DNA from: a virus
Lineage: Duplodnaviria; Caudoviricetes
Length of the DNA: 64,000 nt
Direction: 5' to 3' (one strand)
Virus record (IMG/VR): IMGVR_UViG_3300005512_000001
Coordinates: 160,001-224,000 of that record
Part shown: positions 13,003-37,659 of the stretch, piece by piece
Position numbering within the stretch: the stretch's first letter is position 1
Layout: every line of letters starts with the position of its first letter
Program-made: the position numbers and the translations under genes
The notes under the pieces: model-generated
What the model was told of the DNA's origin: nothing
Seen by the model: only the letters and a program-made list of their open reading frames with translations
The model's database searches: none

Positions 13003-13269
13003 ATGCCATATTATGAAATACGACAATTTGATAAGATTAAATTACGTACCACTAAAAATATCCGTTACTTATCGGCACCGCCCAATGAGATGCCAAGCCC
13101 GCATGGTATCTGGACTGTAGTGGCTAATATAAATAAGGATTTATTAATTTGTAAAGGCGATGCTATATGTAGAGTGCCAGTCTCAGATGTTGTTATCGCC
13201 GGACGATCAGAAATAGACCGTATACTGGAGAGAATAGATGGCAAAAAAGCAAAAGCCAAATCAGAGTAG
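13003..13269 (+). CDS. Hypothetical protein
   Basis: ORF directly upstream of and overlapping recA. Confidence 0.55.
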   Translation: MPYYEIRQFDKIKLRTTKNIRYLSAPPNEMPSPHGIWTVVANINKDLLICKGDAICRVPVSDVVIAGRSEIDRILERIDGKKAKAKSE

Positions 13270-14929
13270 AGAATTTGACAATAAAGAAGATGTCATGAAA
13301 GCTATTGATGACAAATTTGGGAATGGTGCTATAACATTGGGAGCTGGACCGGCACTTGATGTTCCATCTATTAGTACTGGATCGGCTTCACTTGATTTGG
13401 CATTAGGGGTATGGGGAATGCCAAAAGGCCGTATCGCTGAAGTATATGGCCCAGAGAGTAGTGGTAAGACCACATTATGCTTATCAATAATCAAGGAGTG
13501 TCAGAAGCAAGGTGGCGTAGCTGCTTTTGTTGATGCTGAACATGCGTTAGACCCAACATGGGCAAGCAATATAGGTGTTGATATTGACAACCTAATGATT
13601 AGCCAGCCATCATCTGGTGAAGAGGCATTAAGTATTGTTGAGATGCTGGCCGGTTCAAAACAGGTTGATCTTATTGTGGTTGATTCAGTTGCTGCGTTGA
13701 TTCCTCAAGCTGAAATTGATGGTGAGATGGGCGATAGGCAGATTGGTGCCCAGGCTCAATTAATGAGCAAGGCTATGCGTAAGCTTGTTAGTATAACCAA
13801 TAAATCCAATTGTACAATTATATTTATCAACCAAATTAGAATGAAGATTGGTGTTATGTTCGGTTGTTTGCATGGCGATACATTGATTAATTTTGTTGAT
13901 GGTAGTGCATTGCCAATTAAAGATGTTGTTGAAAAGAAAATTGAAGGCGATGTCTGGTGTTATGACGAAGGAAGCAATAACTTTGTTGGACGCAAGATTA
14001 TTGATTGGCACAATAATGGTGATGTTCTTGATAAATGCGATTTTCTGTCTATATTGTTGAGGGGGCCAGGCAATGGCAATGGGCGTATGAATATATGTGT
14101 TACGCCAAATCATCGCGTTTTGACCGATAATGGATGGGCTGAAGCCGGTGACTTGATAATTGGTGATAGAATAATGACGAAGCAAAAGAATATTCTATCT
14201 GGTGATTCGCATTGTATGAGAAGGAAATTACCAGATGGCGTAGATGATTGTAGGGAGTGTACACTACATGTGACTGGCCAATATAGCACCACCTATGCGG
14301 AAGTGGTATCTATTAGAACGGCTAGTAGCAGACAGTTTAGAACAAAAGGGAAATATGATATAACTGTTGATGGCTGCCACAATTATTCCGCTGGTGGTCG
14401 CCATAATGGTGTGATTGTTCATAATTCGCCGGAGACCACACCAGGCGGCCGGGCATTGAAATTCTATTCTTCCATTAGACTTGATATTCGGCGTGCCGGT
14501 GCGATCAAGAAGGGCGATGATAACATTGGGAACTCAATTAAGGTAAAAGTTGTTAAAAATAAGGTTGCGCCGCCATTTAGGCAAGCTGAATTCGGACTAT
14601 ATTTTGGGAGAGATGGATATCCGAGTGGTATTGATTATGCTAGTTCGTTGGTTGATATTGCAGTTGATGTCGGCATTATCAAACAACAAGGGTCGTGGTA
14701 CAATTATGGCGAAATGAGACTTGGGAATGGCCAAGAGAATGCCTATGGCATGATTCGTAGTAATATTGATTTGATGGCAGAGATTAGCGATAAAGTGCGA
14801 GCGGCTTTTAGTCCTGATGGTGTCGATACGGATACAGAAGATACAGAAGATAAAGATATAGAAGATAAAGATATAGAAGATAAAGATATAGAAGATAAGT
14901 CTGATGTATTAGAGGATTTCGAAGAATGA
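13238..14929 (+). CDS. recA: RecA recombinase containing a mini-intein
   Basis: GPESSGKTT, FVDAEHALD, VVDSVAAL, IFINQIRMKIGVMFG|intein|SPETTPGGRALKFY, KNKVAPPF. Confidence 0.97.
   Translation: MAKKQKPNQSREFDNKEDVMKAIDDKFGNGAITLGAGPALDVPSISTGSASLDLALGVWGMPKGRIAEVYGPESSGKTTLCLSIIKECQKQGGVAAFVDAEHALDPTWASNIGVDIDNLMISQPSSGEEALSIVEMLAGSKQVDLIVVDSVAALIPQAEIDGEMGDRQIGAQAQLMSKAMRKLVSITNKSNCTIIFINQIRMKIGVMFGCLHGDTLINFVDGSALPIKDVVEKKIEGDVWCYDEGSNNFVGRKIIDWHNNGDVLDKCDFLSILLRGPGNGNGRMNICVTPNHRVLTDNGWAEAGDLIIGDRIMTKQKNILSGDSHCMRRKLPDGVDDCRECTLHVTGQYSTTYAEVVSIRTASSRQFRTKGKYDITVDGCHNYSAGGRHNGVIVHNSPETTPGGRALKFYSSIRLDIRRAGAIKKGDDNIGNSIKVKVVKNKVAPPFRQAEFGLYFGRDGYPSGIDYASSLVDIAVDVGIIKQQGSWYNYGEMRLGNGQENAYGMIRSNIDLMAEISDKVRAAFSPDGVDTDTEDTEDKDIEDKDIEDKDIEDKSDVLEDFEE
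13865..14425 (+). mobile_element. Mini-intein (187 aa) in RecA, no intact endonuclease
   Basis: Starts CLHGDT, block B VTPNH, ends YDITV...VIVHN followed by Ser +1. Confidence 0.93.
14846..14899 (+). repeat. 15-bp tandem repeat (GAAGATAAAGATATA x3 plus a partial copy) encoding the EDKDI acidic RecA tail
   Basis: Read directly from the sequence. Confidence 0.9.
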
Positions 14930-33357: not shown

Positions 33358-33579
33358 ATGATGGCGTTACCAGCATTTGGTTTTGGAAGAGGTTTTGGCT
33401 TTAAGAGAGGTTTAGGTTTGGGTAGAGGCTTCGGTGGCGGTAGAGGCCAAGGCGTGAAAGATGGCACTGGCGGTGGTGTGGGGCGAGGTACTGGCAGACG
33501 TGCACAGTCTCTTGCTAAGAAGCAAGAGCGGGCAGCACGCAGAGCAACATGCCCACGCCGGAATACACCTGAGAAATAA
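33358..33579 (+). CDS. Small Gly/Arg-rich basic protein
   Basis: GRG/GFG repeats; directly follows the previous ORF. Confidence 0.45.
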   Translation: MMALPAFGFGRGFGFKRGLGLGRGFGGGRGQGVKDGTGGGVGRGTGRRAQSLAKKQERAARRATCPRRNTPEK

Positions 33580-33625: not shown

Positions 33626-35089
33626 TTAAAGATGTTTAATGAACCTTAGGACTTCTAGGCCCTTTATTTTATGCAGACCGTTTGTATTTGCATAATCTTG
33701 TTCTTTCATTCTCAGCCGCTTAGCTTGATCCCATACTGATTTTTTGTAATATCTTGTACCATTAGAATCAATATACCAGTAAGACGGTTTTGTCCTCCCG
33801 TCTTCTTGCCACCCAGCTGCTTTATAAACGGTGCCGCTGTGTCCAGCCCCTATGTCTGAAAATGCTATTAATGTTTTGATATGCTTTGGAATAAATTTCA
33901 TAGATTTCGCTATAAACCACGATGCGAAATTCTTTTTATGATATTCAGGGTGGATGCATAACCGTTGCAACTCTAATATTTCTTTGTGTTCTAAATTCAA
34001 TCTAGCGGCCGTCTGTAATCTTGTGATGCCTGTATAATTTATTGCCGCTACTAATTTGTTGTCCAGAAATGCACCAATACCCAACCCCGCTCTACCTTTA
34101 GATAAGTAATGATATAGATTAAAGAAATCATTTATCACGCTTTTACGGATGATTTTAACTTCAACATGTTTGAGGTCAAATTGTTTTGATATATCCTCTT
34201 GATGTAGGACATTCTTTAAGATATGTCTAATACTATTTAAGCCATAAAACTGGTGTTCGTAAATATAATATAATTCCCATTTATCAGACAAATATTTGTC
34301 GAAATATGTCTTCTTTTGTTTGTCTCTAGTTATTCTAGATGGGCGTGAATGCCAATATTCTCCTTGGCATTCGATTAAAATATTGCGATCTTTATAGGAA
34401 AAACCGACATCAAATGACCATGGTCCTAGGCTTATTGGTTGTGCATCGATTCCCATGCTTTGCAGGGAATTAATAATTATGTTATCTAATATGGATATAG
34501 GTGACAAGTTAGATATAGCTGTAGCTTGTTTTTGTCTATATTGTTTTGACTTCCACATCCTCTTTGAATTGGCACTTACTTTTTGTTTGAATTCATCTGA
34601 ACTGGTTGCTAGGTTTATTCCTTGAGTTGTTTTAATAAAGTATTCTGAATCTTTCCACAACTTCACTGCCAGTTCTGATTGCAATTTTTTACGTGCTGGT
34701 GTCCAACTTTTCTTTAATGATTCAGATATCTTCTTCTTTTTTACGTCGGTTGTGGATTTTTTTATGCCAGCAATGATACTATCACGATTCTTTTCCCAAT
34801 TCTTTTTAGCTGATTCTGATAATTTTTGCTTTCTGTTGCTTTGTATCCTTTTCATTATTTCTGAATGTTTTGTCCTATTGGCTTTATTCGACCAGTGGTT
34901 TTTAGAACGTTGCGATATATGGTCGGATTTTAGTAACATTCCTTTACTTATGCTTCTGGTTTTAATGCCAAATTTCTTTACATAATATCGGATTGTAGCT
35001 GGAGACACTGAGCATCGCTTTGCTATGTCTCTGATACTCATTATTGAATATGCGGTTTGTAACTCATCTTTATTTTTGTGATTTATCAT
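33626..35089 (-). CDS. Vsr/DUF559 nuclease-Mom-like acetyltransferase fusion, copy 4
   Basis: HTH plus repeats; FDVGF..IECQGEYWH..IYEHQF; YHYL, ELQRLCIHP, IAFSD..HSGTVYKAAGW. Confidence 0.75.
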   Translation of the reverse strand: MINHKNKDELQTAYSIMSIRDIAKRCSVSPATIRYYVKKFGIKTRSISKGMLLKSDHISQRSKNHWSNKANRTKHSEIMKRIQSNRKQKLSESAKKNWEKNRDSIIAGIKKSTTDVKKKKISESLKKSWTPARKKLQSELAVKLWKDSEYFIKTTQGINLATSSDEFKQKVSANSKRMWKSKQYRQKQATAISNLSPISILDNIIINSLQSMGIDAQPISLGPWSFDVGFSYKDRNILIECQGEYWHSRPSRITRDKQKKTYFDKYLSDKWELYYIYEHQFYGLNSIRHILKNVLHQEDISKQFDLKHVEVKIIRKSVINDFFNLYHYLSKGRAGLGIGAFLDNKLVAAINYTGITRLQTAARLNLEHKEILELQRLCIHPEYHKKNFASWFIAKSMKFIPKHIKTLIAFSDIGAGHSGTVYKAAGWQEDGRTKPSYWYIDSNGTRYYKKSVWDQAKRLRMKEQDYANTNGLHKIKGLEVLRFIKHL

Positions 35090-35188: not shown

Positions 35189-35905
35189 ATGGCGATAGTA
35201 GGTCCGTCAGATTTACCATACATTTTGCAAGTTGATAGCGACCCAATGAAGAAATACGTATTATCTAAATTGGGTCACCCGGTGGTTGAGGTAGAAATCA
35301 CAGAAGACCAGTGGGAAACGGTCCTACGTACTACTGGCAATTTCATAGCTCATTACTTTTCAAAAGAGCAGATGTTTGCTGTTTTCTACACCACGCCTCT
35401 AGAGAACACATATGATTTACCGAATAATGCATATTGGATTCAAGAGGTGGCATGGGATCCAGTAACGACAATGATTGACCAAATATTCGGTGCGGAGAGC
35501 TTTTTATTCTGTTTTGGTCCTGGCACCAAAATTCTGCGGTCAGATGGTGAGATGATTCTTATTGATGAATGGCAAGAGGATTATAAGGCCAAAACACCAT
35601 TTGGCGACAAGAAGATTAAAATAGAAAAACATGATAAAGACCAGCAGTTGCTAGAAATTGAACATGAATATGGGAAAATTGTAGTCACGCCAAACCATCC
35701 ACTAAAGACGAGTAGTTTAGACGATATGATGGATGGATGGGTGCCTGCTGATGAATGTGTTGTTGGCTCCGATATAATGACGAGCGACGGACCATCTAAA
35801 GTTGTTAGTGTTAAAGAATTGAATGGCCCTACCAACTCTATTATTGTGCCTGGGGCACATTGTTTTTGGGCAAGTGTAGATGGACAACCTATATTGGTGA
35901 GTTAG
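35189..35905 (+). CDS. Neck protein (T4 gp13-like), N-terminal half fused to a Hint domain
   Basis: YVLSKLGHPVVEVEITEDQ resembles gp13 Y.LR.LG.PV..I.V..EQ; Hint domain from Cys108. Confidence 0.8.
   Translation: MAIVGPSDLPYILQVDSDPMKKYVLSKLGHPVVEVEITEDQWETVLRTTGNFIAHYFSKEQMFAVFYTTPLENTYDLPNNAYWIQEVAWDPVTTMIDQIFGAESFLFCFGPGTKILRSDGEMILIDEWQEDYKAKTPFGDKKIKIEKHDKDQQLLEIEHEYGKIVVTPNHPLKTSSLDDMMDGWVPADECVVGSDIMTSDGPSKVVSVKELNGPTNSIIVPGAHCFWASVDGQPILVS
35510..35902 (+). mobile_element. Hint/intein domain (131 aa) lacking terminal Asn and C-extein
   Basis: CFGPGTKI, VTPNHP, WVPADEC..G, IIVPGAHCFWA...ILVS then TAG. Confidence 0.8.
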
Positions 35906-36008
35906 ATGAATAATTTTTCGATATATTATGATGGAAGTATAACCGCTGGTGGCGTATTTGGCGATGATTCTGATTATCATACTTATATGGGCAATCAAAT
36001 ATAAATAT

Positions 36009-36995
36009 GTGAGCAATAAAATAGATATACAAGTAGATGAGTTAAAAGAATATTTCAAAAATCATACTTTAAAACAATGTGCAATTAAATTTAATTGCTC
36101 TAAAGTAACTATAAAACGCAAATTGCAGTTTGTTGGTGTCGACACTTCAATTCACAATCATAGTCAATTGGCTTTAGATGCACATCGTAAATCTTTAAAA
36201 GACACTTCTAAATTAACTAAGGAATTTTTATATCAAGAATATGTTGTTCAGAATAAGGATGCTAAGACAATAGCGGAAGAAACTGGATTCCATTTTAATA
36301 CTATTAGGAATCGAACGCGCGAATTTGGGTTTAAAAAAGACCCTAAAAATGCTTCAATTTCAATGCAGTTGCGATATATGAAAAAGACAGGGTATCTTCA
36401 TCCTGGGCATAATCCGATAAATATAGCCAAGATAAACAAAAGACGGTCAAGATTTGAATATCATCCAGTTAAATCAGAAAAGTTAGTATTGTTCAAGTCA
36501 TTGCATGAGCTATGTTATGCATTATTGCTTGATAACGACCCAGATGTTGAGTCATGGGATTATGAACTAATTAAAATCCCATATATGGATGTAATAAAGA
36601 GACGCATGAGAATGTATTATGTTGATTTTTCAATTCAAGCTAAAAGCGGCGACCGATGGGTTGAAGTTAAACCAGCCAATAAAATGGTTCCACATATGAA
36701 GCGGCTATACGCCTCATATGCAGCAAAAAAAGCTGGCATAAAGTTTAGAGGATTGACCAATGATGAACGTAAGTTAGGATATGATTTGTTTATTGGTGGG
36801 TATAATTATGACAGAATTGGTTTTAGAAATGTAAAATCATTAAAATTGGGGTCATGCTATACTTTGTGGCTCAAAGATATTAATGAATTAAAAGAGGTAG
36901 AACATGACCACTATAAATACACAGACCAACTTGGCCCATTTCACCGATGCAAGTTCAAAGCCAAGGCTAAAAATAAATCTGTCGCCTCTCACTAG
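36009..36995 (+). CDS. HTH plus TnsA-like PD-(D/E)xK endonuclease (free-standing homing-endonuclease-like)
   Basis: HTH repeats; FKS.HE......LD.D..V..W.YE...IPY......YYVDF......VEVKP; probable GTG start at 36009. Confidence 0.7.
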   Translation: MSNKIDIQVDELKEYFKNHTLKQCAIKFNCSKVTIKRKLQFVGVDTSIHNHSQLALDAHRKSLKDTSKLTKEFLYQEYVVQNKDAKTIAEETGFHFNTIRNRTREFGFKKDPKNASISMQLRYMKKTGYLHPGHNPINIAKINKRRSRFEYHPVKSEKLVLFKSLHELCYALLLDNDPDVESWDYELIKIPYMDVIKRRMRMYYVDFSIQAKSGDRWVEVKPANKMVPHMKRLYASYAAKKAGIKFRGLTNDERKLGYDLFIGGYNYDRIGFRNVKSLKLGSCYTLWLKDINELKEVEHDHYKYTDQLGPFHRCKFKAKAKNKSVASH

Positions 36996-37659
36996 TGTCA
37001 ATGCGTTTACAGATATTGATGAAGGCACAATTTATCTATCCCAATATCGTTATTGCAACGGTGACTTTCTAGATGTAATTGCTGATGAGATGGCCCATTT
37101 TATTTCTGGCGCAGACCATGATGAAGAATGGAAACAGACTTGCTTGCAGTCGTACGGAAAAATTCCGCCGCACAATTCTGAATTTGATAAGATAAGACGC
37201 AGGCTTGGAATACCGAGCAATATTGCGGGGAACATCGGAAATATTACTGGCATACAGCAAATTCTTACTGATTACCATCTGTTGCAGTCATATAGAAGGT
37301 TCAGTCAACGGTTATTGGGCAATGAGGGCCATTGGGAAGTTTTGGGCGATAATAAAATAAGATTGTATCCAACGCCGAAAGGTTCATTCCCTGTTACTGT
37401 TTTGTACATTCCACCTATTTCCACATGGCGTACCCCTGCCAACAAGCTACTGGCAATGGATATGCTATTGGCTGAAAGCATGATTATGTTAGGGAGCGCT
37501 AGAGGTAAGTTTAGTGGTATACCTAGCCCAGATGGTGGGTCATTGAGCTTAGATGGCGGTGACCTCAAGCAGAAAGGGCAAGAGTTGCGTGATAAAGTCA
37601 TGCAGGATGCTATCCTGCTCTCAGATGACCCATATGCTTCTGCAATTTACAGGTACTAA
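36904..37659 (+). CDS. Neck protein (gp13-like), C-terminal half preceded by a SprT-like zincin domain
   Basis: IYLS...VIADEMAH...H.EEW / H.SEF..I.RRLG, then TDYHLLQSY and LG.ARGKF.GIPSP.G..LSLDG..L (gp13 C-terminal pattern). Confidence 0.7.
   Translation: MTTINTQTNLAHFTDASSKPRLKINLSPLTSVNAFTDIDEGTIYLSQYRYCNGDFLDVIADEMAHFISGADHDEEWKQTCLQSYGKIPPHNSEFDKIRRRLGIPSNIAGNIGNITGIQQILTDYHLLQSYRRFSQRLLGNEGHWEVLGDNKIRLYPTPKGSFPVTVLYIPPISTWRTPANKLLAMDMLLAESMIMLGSARGKFSGIPSPDGGSLSLDGGDLKQKGQELRDKVMQDAILLSDDPYASAIYRY

Follow-up and report, generated by a model that had tools for sequence, protein, structure and literature searches.

Inteins and split inteins need a Cys, Ser, or Thr residue directly after them, and this requirement limits the sites at which they can be inserted or engineered. 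In the fractured genes of phages (Dassa et al. 2009, PMC2677866), the two parts of a broken gene carry an N-intein and a C-intein of roughly 35 to 50 residues, the latter ending in Asn and being followed by Cys, Ser, or Thr. In Hint domains of the bacterial intein-like (BIL) and Hedgehog (Hog) types, such as BIL2 of BUBL (PDB 6y75; PMC8616854), the N-terminal thioester is resolved by water, a sterol, or an amine and not by a +1 side chain. Here, we describe a cassette that interrupts a gp13-like neck gene of a phage (IMG/VR record IMGVR_UViG_3300005512_000001; 341,434 bp, with direct terminal repeats, rated complete) and that lies in the analyzed window of 64,000 nucleotides (bases 160001 to 224000 of the record). 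The cassette consists of a Hint domain fused behind the first half of the neck protein, a free-standing nuclease gene, and a zincin-like leader fused in front of the second half. It occupies a site with Asn in the +1 position, and its removal has apparently been solved by two unrelated autoprocessing domains. We tentatively propose, while giving it somewhat less than an even chance, that it uses an undescribed protein-splicing route that needs no +1 nucleophile, in which an Asn-less Hint would form a thioester, a mini-zincin would unmask an amine, aminolysis would follow, and the nuclease would spread the whole.

The locus consists of three plus-strand open reading frames (ORFs) in three different frames that span positions 35189 to 37659 of the window, all at the coordinates given by an earlier note made from the letters of this DNA. 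ORF1 (35189 to 35905, 238 residues) begins with the N-half of the neck protein (35189 to 35509, residues 1 to 107, ending GAESFLF) and continues into the complete Hint (intein-like) domain (35510 to 35905, residues 108 to 238), which reads CFGPGTK...VTPNHPL...HCFWASVDGQPILVS and is closed by TAG at 35903 to 35905. ORF2 encodes a putative homing endonuclease with a helix-turn-helix (HTH) and a TnsA-like PD-(D/E)xK domain; its longest form starts at GTG 35949, GTG 36009 is the start conserved with relatives, and the gene ends at 36995, giving a feature at 36009 to 36995. ORF3 (36904 to 37659, 251 residues) reads ...ADEMAHFISGADHDEEW...RRRLGIPSNIAG and then NIGNITGIQQ. Its first 109 residues (36904 to 37230) form a minigluzincin/SprT-like metallopeptidase-like leader that carries the motif DEMAH...DH (D61-E62-M-A-H65 and H72), and residues 110 to 251 (37231 to 37659, stop codon included) are the C-half of the neck protein, which starts NIGNITGIQ, so that the border reads IPSNIAG|NIGNITG. 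The last 92 nucleotides of the nuclease gene are shared with the beginning of ORF3, and AAGAGG lies 7 nucleotides 5' of the ORF3 ATG. Since the three ORFs either overlap or follow each other closely, joint expression is probable; the count of promoter-like sites at the locus was not above that in shuffled sequence. DNA and protein searches of cultured-phage records gave no match for the region, for either half, or for the nuclease.

The earlier note had read the neck gene as one gene in two ORFs and had guessed FLF|NIGN as its native junction, and both points were borne out. Searches of IMG/VR with each half returned uninterrupted relatives of 249 to 278 residues, all with ...FGAESFLFNIGNI[ST]GIQ..., and more than 20 uninterrupted homologues, once aligned, read ...GAESFLFNIGNI[ST]GIQ... 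through the junction. On the uninterrupted contigs, the matches to the N-half and to the C-half abut to the base. Because the matches abut and FLF|NIGN is found in the uninterrupted genes, this alignment puts the insert precisely at the bond that joins F107 to N108 in the native protein, with Asn as the +1 residue. The N-half is 89% identical to residues 1 to 107 of the uninterrupted relatives L004 and L001, the C-half is 89% identical to residues 108 to 249 of L004, and a profile of the uninterrupted family matched the two halves with E values of 5.8e-64 (N-half) and 3.3e-63 (C-half). The junction stretch is the most invariant part of this family. The two halves are the only ones in the complete 341-kb genome; the second, intact gp13 copy that the note had envisaged as an alternative was not found by whole-genome protein and profile searches.

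Several lines point to the identity of the host gene. The uninterrupted-family profile matched T4 gp13 chains collinearly, if marginally (E 0.06), a fold search of the ESM Atlas with the C-half returned clusters of PF26809 (Phage_T4_gp13) at a template modeling (TM) score of 0.53, and precomputed PF26809 hits accompany relatives of the gene. A gp15-like gene lies downstream (PF16724, 2.6e-12) and is followed by a sheath gene in related loci. By similarity and by its position in a neck/tail module, we therefore assign the host gene to the T4 gp13-type neck proteins.

The earlier note had recognized a nearly complete Hint domain behind the N-half, and structure prediction supported the whole fold. 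The domain comprises 131 residues, with C108 as Cys1 and T167-x-x-H170 as block B, and AlphaFold2 (AF2), supplied with an alignment of relatives, modeled ORF1 residues 108 to 238 with a predicted local distance difference test score (pLDDT) of 79 to 96. Foldseek gave 58 PDB matches for this model at E<=0.001, headed by BIL2 of Tetrahymena BUBL, a BIL domain of Clostridium thermocellum, and the gp41-1 intein; E values ranged from 3e-7 to 1e-4 for BIL2, the C. thermocellum BIL domain, and the gp41-1 and DnaB inteins. Superposition on the gp41-1 intein covered 136 columns with a root mean square deviation of 2.4 Å and a target-normalized TM score of 0.81. The model thus depicts a whole Hint fold and not the N-fragment of a split intein. 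At the sequence level, a profile of the domain matched the Prp8 intein at E 0.0097, the Cys1 and TxxH positions of the two being aligned, and the best family match was Pfam Vint at E 1.6e-4, which is below the curated cutoff and makes the family assignment weak. The domain has the N-terminal nucleophile and the block-B His of BIL/Hog-type domains and, like them, no C-terminal splice junction.

The same window encodes a canonical intein for comparison. A RecA homologue (PF00154, 4.8e-114) at 13238 to 14929 on the plus strand carries a 187-residue mini-intein, C...VIVHN|S, at 13865 to 14425, and block B of the gp13 Hint matched that of the RecA intein at E 5e-5. A single phage thus harbors both a normal intein and an Asn-less Hint cassette, with recognizably related block-B regions. 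When the gp13 Hints were aligned jointly with the RecA intein, Cys1 and T-x-N-H were invariant across them, and their ends, ...P[IV]L[VIAL][SH], lined up with ...GVIVH in the RecA intein, so that they fall short of the Asn by exactly one residue. A conserved block-F Cys was considered as a class-3-type nucleophile and was rejected, as it aligns to the Asn of "HNF" and not to F:4 and is Val in L045.

The absence of a terminal Asn and of a +1 nucleophile, which the earlier note had also pointed out, was confirmed: the Hint ends ILVS-TAG and the native +1 residue is Asn. This stop is no error of the record, since 10 loci from independent assemblies stop at the same position through TAG, TGA, or TAA. 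As the position is shared and each of the three codons also terminates long ORFs in the window, the stop can be taken as real and the genetic code as standard. Lacking the Asn, the +1 nucleophile, and a C-intein, the gp13 cassette is excluded from canonical cis- or trans-splicing. Hints from divergent cassettes were only 28 to 33% identical, and Cys1 and the block-B Thr and His were invariant throughout, whereas the block-F His and the block-G penultimate residue, which act in later splicing steps, differed between clades. Among the splicing residues, those of the thioester step (Cys1 and block-B T..H) are thus the only fixed ones. No sampled lineage has lost the Hint.

The leader of the C-half had been likened to a SprT-type zincin, and this likeness was upheld by four agreeing lines, each of them weak or middling. 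First, a profile of the leader weakly matched selecase and projannalysin among PDB sequences (E 0.07 to 0.24, selecase at 0.07), with the motif in register. Second, AF2 modeled residues 21 to 100 at pLDDT 73 to 85, and the top Foldseek hits of this model were proabylysin (4jiu), selecase (4qhf), and projannalysin (4jix), with probabilities of 0.97 to 1.0 and target-normalized TM scores of about 0.5. Third, VIA-align placed proabylysin first (Z 6.8; model residues 19 to 117 onto residues 16 to 103 of the 105-residue chain), followed by selecase (Z 6.7), human SPRTN (6mdx; Z 6.3), and projannalysin (Z 6.1). Fourth, a fold search of the ESM Atlas returned SprT-like and YgjP-like clusters; a feature search of the same atlas gave no usable match. 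The predicted fold of the leader is thus that of a minimal zincin (minigluzincin), with middling scores throughout. Wss1 and Spartan are themselves classed as minigluzincins in a passage of PMC4559962. The C-terminal tail of proabylysin lies in the cleft of the same molecule, with its final residue on the zinc (PMC5557861), an arrangement that looks like the product complex of a cut at the domain end; the gp13 leader is about the size of proabylysin and ends exactly at the native junction.

Alignment of 12 leaders revealed invariant E62, H65, H72, R100, G102, and I103 and a common pattern before the junction, [RK]R.GI...[IL][AG][AG]|N[IV]GN. Four of the 12 have His as their first ligand (HELAH, HEFAH), and the other 8 have Asp (DEMAH and similar); the leaders of L045 and L046 read HEVTH and HELAH. 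A partial copy at 368 to 709 of L036 has the canonical HELAH in its leader, while its C-half ends ...NIGQISGIQEILIKPSI-stop on a 1-kb contig; this copy represents an allele in decay or else a chimera of the assembly. The prevalence of Asp as the first zinc ligand would fit a leader that is an inactive relic, and more generally a cassette that is processed partially or not at all, its extra domain or domains staying on the neck as decorations. We consider this unlikely. The catalytic Glu and the two His ligands are invariant even within the DExxH clade, as are Cys1 and TxxH of the Hint, and the borders of both domains coincide to the residue with the native junction. Moreover, the neck protein forms a ring, and two extra domains of 13 kDa each at its most conserved motif would probably not fit without a clash.

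We searched for the leader in other contexts. An exhaustive search of 1.84 billion representatives with the single sequence yielded three genuine matches, each of them a leader with a gp13 C-half or a fragment thereof, and a search for longer proteins with the leader profile gave nine, all gp13 C-halves of 210 to 251 residues. No leader fused to another host gene was found by profile, although this search needs shared 5-residue words and is weak evidence of absence. Two seemingly strong matches, P0009 and P0012, were rejected as leader homologues, being internally repetitive with scores inflated by 13 to 14 repeats.

Between the halves, the HTH/TnsA-like nuclease gene that had been read from the translation was recovered by Pfam as Tn7_TnsA-like_N (PF08722, 1.4e-7) together with HTH-type matches. 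Its motif ...YVDF...WVEVKP is kept in L031, L035, L036, L040, L045, and L046, and D...EVK was present in all relatives read. The nuclease homologues fall into 42 clusters, down to 37% identity, and all those whose context was read, including the three most distant placeable ones, lie between gp13 halves. Against PHROGs, the TnsA-like domain of ORF2 matched phrog_218 (5.4e-14) and phrog_14892 (2.7e-08), both labeled "head closure", which is probably a misannotation stemming from nucleases inside neck or head-completion genes. In L045 (2501 to 3880), the cassette nuclease has 459 residues and an extra C-terminal YunG-like domain (PF24585).

A search for the same architecture elsewhere, which the earlier note had suggested, found it in L031, L035, L040, L045, and L046 and in two ENA loci, with partial copies in L027, L032 to L034, L036, and L041 to L043. 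No second type of locus was seen with the leader profile or among the checked nuclease homologues, with the same reservation about searches based on 5-residue words. This distribution bears on whether the two domains could serve another purpose, either the joining of the N-half to some other acceptor or the action of the leader protease in trans. For the former, there is a precedent in BIL2 of BUBL, which transfers its N-terminal flank to Lys residues (PMC8616854), and a Lys of a virion protein could be the target here. However, the cassette sits at one gp13 site only, with both borders at the native junction, as expected if it restores the neck protein, and we regard another purpose as distinctly unlikely.

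The Hint, the nuclease, and the leader share one pattern of pairwise identities, in which the window groups with L031 and then L040, apart from a group of L045, L046, and L035; Hints of the two clades are 28 to 38% identical to each other. The host halves differ from this pattern: those of the window are 89% identical to the uninterrupted L004 but 75 to 79% identical to the interrupted L031, and those of the interrupted L046 are 88 to 90% identical to the uninterrupted L028. Presence and absence among close relatives at one fixed site fits a homing element and is consistent with the mobility that the earlier note had ascribed to the nuclease. Taken together, the comparisons describe a conserved, mobile three-part element on the intein/fractured-gene theme. 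The cassette can itself be invaded by a second selfish gene, as at the ENA locus of P0062, where a 642-residue Mom-like gene on the opposite strand is nested between the TnsA-like nuclease gene and the gene for the leader and C-half.

A codon comparison of the window with L031 gave proportions of nonsynonymous differences (pN) of 0.13 to 0.24 against saturated proportions of synonymous differences (pS) of 0.64 to 0.82, and similar ratios were obtained for three other pairs. As judged by these ratios, all three cassette parts are under purifying selection, and the Hint and the leader, including the part of the leader outside the nuclease overlap, are about as constrained as the essential halves; for the cassette parts, pN was 0.15 to 0.24. 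Selection in three frames over nearly the whole of the 1.7-kb insert, which is protein coding, also argues against removal at the RNA or DNA level, be it by a group I intron, precise excision, or bypassing. Endonuclease ORFs are frequent in the introns of phages, and the ends of the insert could formally comply with the U/G rules for splice sites, but Rfam gave no intron match even at E<=10 (noise only). Terminal repeats, whether direct or inverted, were not found at the insert borders. An assembly error is contradicted by the 10 independent assemblies that share the stop position through three different codons, and a dead gene by the lack of any other gp13 copy, since its loss would kill the phage. 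We therefore hold all explanations of this kind to be very improbable.

The proposed mechanism has four steps. In the first, ORF1 would fold, and its Hint, by means of Cys108 and the Thr and His of block B, would convert the peptide bond between F107 and C108 into a thioester. In the second, the zincin leader would cut its own C-terminal tail at G109|N110 and so create the exact native N terminus NIGN.... In the third, the neck halves would dock and the alpha-amine of Asn110 would attack the thioester, giving ...FLF-NIGN... and releasing the Hint; the ligated product would contain the junction peptide ...AESFLFNIGNITG.... In the fourth, the nuclease would cut uninterrupted alleles and spread the whole cassette. 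It is speculation that the freed N terminus docks where the intein's own end would lie, an idea suggested by two features, the Hint being cut off just ahead of its Asn position and the incoming C-half having Asn at its N terminus. That an amine can resolve a Hint thioester is known from BIL2 of Tetrahymena BUBL, also our top Foldseek hit, which forms a Lys isopeptide bond (PMC8616854).

If no amine attacked in the third step, hydrolysis would yield two trimmed halves that associate noncovalently. In such a scheme, the Hint would hydrolyze its thioester, the leader would cut itself off, and the ...FLF and NIGN... halves would assemble as they are; both domains could have acted as solubility or assembly helpers or as timers before releasing themselves as peptidases. 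The anatomy and the residue conservation agree with it as well as with ligation. In addition, AF2 leaves the N-half alone unfolded (pLDDT about 30), and a fused soluble domain could help it. Trimming alone is in our view a real possibility, though on balance a doubtful one, as it leaves unexplained why a Hint with intact thioester residues is retained. An identical N-half would result from a stop after F107, for which one base change (Cys TGT to TGA) is enough, yet there is no sampled lineage without a Hint; a start codon before N110 would nearly yield the C-half. The break also falls in the most invariant motif of the family. We lean toward ligation because trimming alone needs no Hint, and yet neither set of catalytic residues has been lost despite deep divergence. 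The retention of two catalytically equipped domains suggests that both an activated carboxyl and a free amine at the exact position are required.

Ligation of the neck halves by the Hint thioester and a protease-freed alpha-amine is thus the outcome that we favor, with a likelihood somewhat below even. It builds on what was observed or computed at these loci, namely, the anatomy, the two folds, the conservation of catalytic residues, purifying selection, site specificity, and the presence/absence polymorphism; from these we infer every chemical step, ligation above all. Several points weigh against it. Elsewhere, Hint domains (BIL, Hog, and pretoxin) and zincin domains are known only in the role of self-releasing peptidases, which fits trimming without ligation. 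To our knowledge, no intein-like element that reunites the parts of a split protein has been described as working through direct attack by an alpha-amine (aminolysis). The first zinc ligand of the leader in the window is Asp (DEMAH), so that the protease could be weakened or inactive, and the support for the zincin fold is middling (Z 6.8; sequence E about 0.07). Finally, endonuclease-split phage genes can work unjoined, as stated for Aeh1 nrdA in a part of PMC2677866.

Other genes near the neck gene make gp13 look like a hotspot for selfish genes. Just upstream, a minus-strand ORF of 487 residues (33626 to 35089) has a Mom-like GNAT domain (PF25680, 2.5e-20) in addition to an HTH and a weakly matched Vsr-like nuclease (MTES_1575), and its family is labeled "homing endonuclease" in PHROGs. 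This ORF is kept beside gp13 in L031, L032, and L045, while L002 and L040 have comparable ORFs on the downstream side of gp13. Between a 145-residue ORF and this Mom-like gene, we also noted a candidate plus-strand ORF of 73 residues at 33358 to 33579, which is rich in Gly and Arg (GFGRGFGFKRGLGLGRGFGGGRG...).

There is a substantial chance that a new chemistry of ligation is at work in the gp13 cassette. If it joins the halves, it would be a natural scarless ligation without a nucleophilic junction residue, which would matter to protein engineers and for the evolution of selfish elements; if they are only trimmed, the cassette would still show a novel means by which a homing nuclease can reside in an essential structural gene and do no harm. 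No published description of a split-gene layout with Hint, nuclease, and zincin came up in full-text literature searches, which covered split inteins with metalloproteases, minigluzincins, fractured genes, and Hint domains accompanied by homing endonucleases.

Among described systems, fractured genes come closest. They share with the gp13 cassette the break of a conserved phage gene at a highly conserved site, the tight packing of the genes, the intein-type domain after the N-half, and the free-standing PD-(D/E)xK-type endonuclease gene between the halves. In contrast to their N-intein and C-intein, the gp13 cassette has a whole Hint on the N side that stops one residue before the Asn position and a zincin-like domain on the C side in place of the C-intein, its +1 residue is Asn, and its host is a structural protein and not an enzyme of DNA metabolism. 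Class-1 mini-inteins, such as those of the window RecA and gp41-1 (PDB 6riz), have the same fold, with Cys1 and block-B TxNH in register; unlike them, the gp13 Hint lacks the terminal Asn and the +1 nucleophile, its reading frame ends with the Hint, and the block-F His and penultimate residue are variable. BIL and Hedgehog Hints form an N-terminal thioester whose resolution depends on no +1 side chain, as is proposed for the gp13 Hint, but they are not known from mobile endonuclease cassettes or as interruptions of essential genes, nor in company with a protease that unmasks an acceptor. Minigluzincins and the SprT/Wss1 proteins resemble the leader in size (about 105 to 110 residues), in their three-stranded sheet, in the (H/D)ExxH helix, and in the downstream His, whereas the gp13 leader is fused ahead of a neck half and has Asp as its first ligand in the clade of the window. 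We know of no minigluzincin for which the role of a self-cleaving leader has been described. Genes in pieces, for which a part of PMC2677866 gives Aeh1 nrdA/mobE as an example, likewise arise when the insertion of an endonuclease leaves an essential phage gene divided between two ORFs, but there no autoprocessing domains are needed and the halves simply associate.

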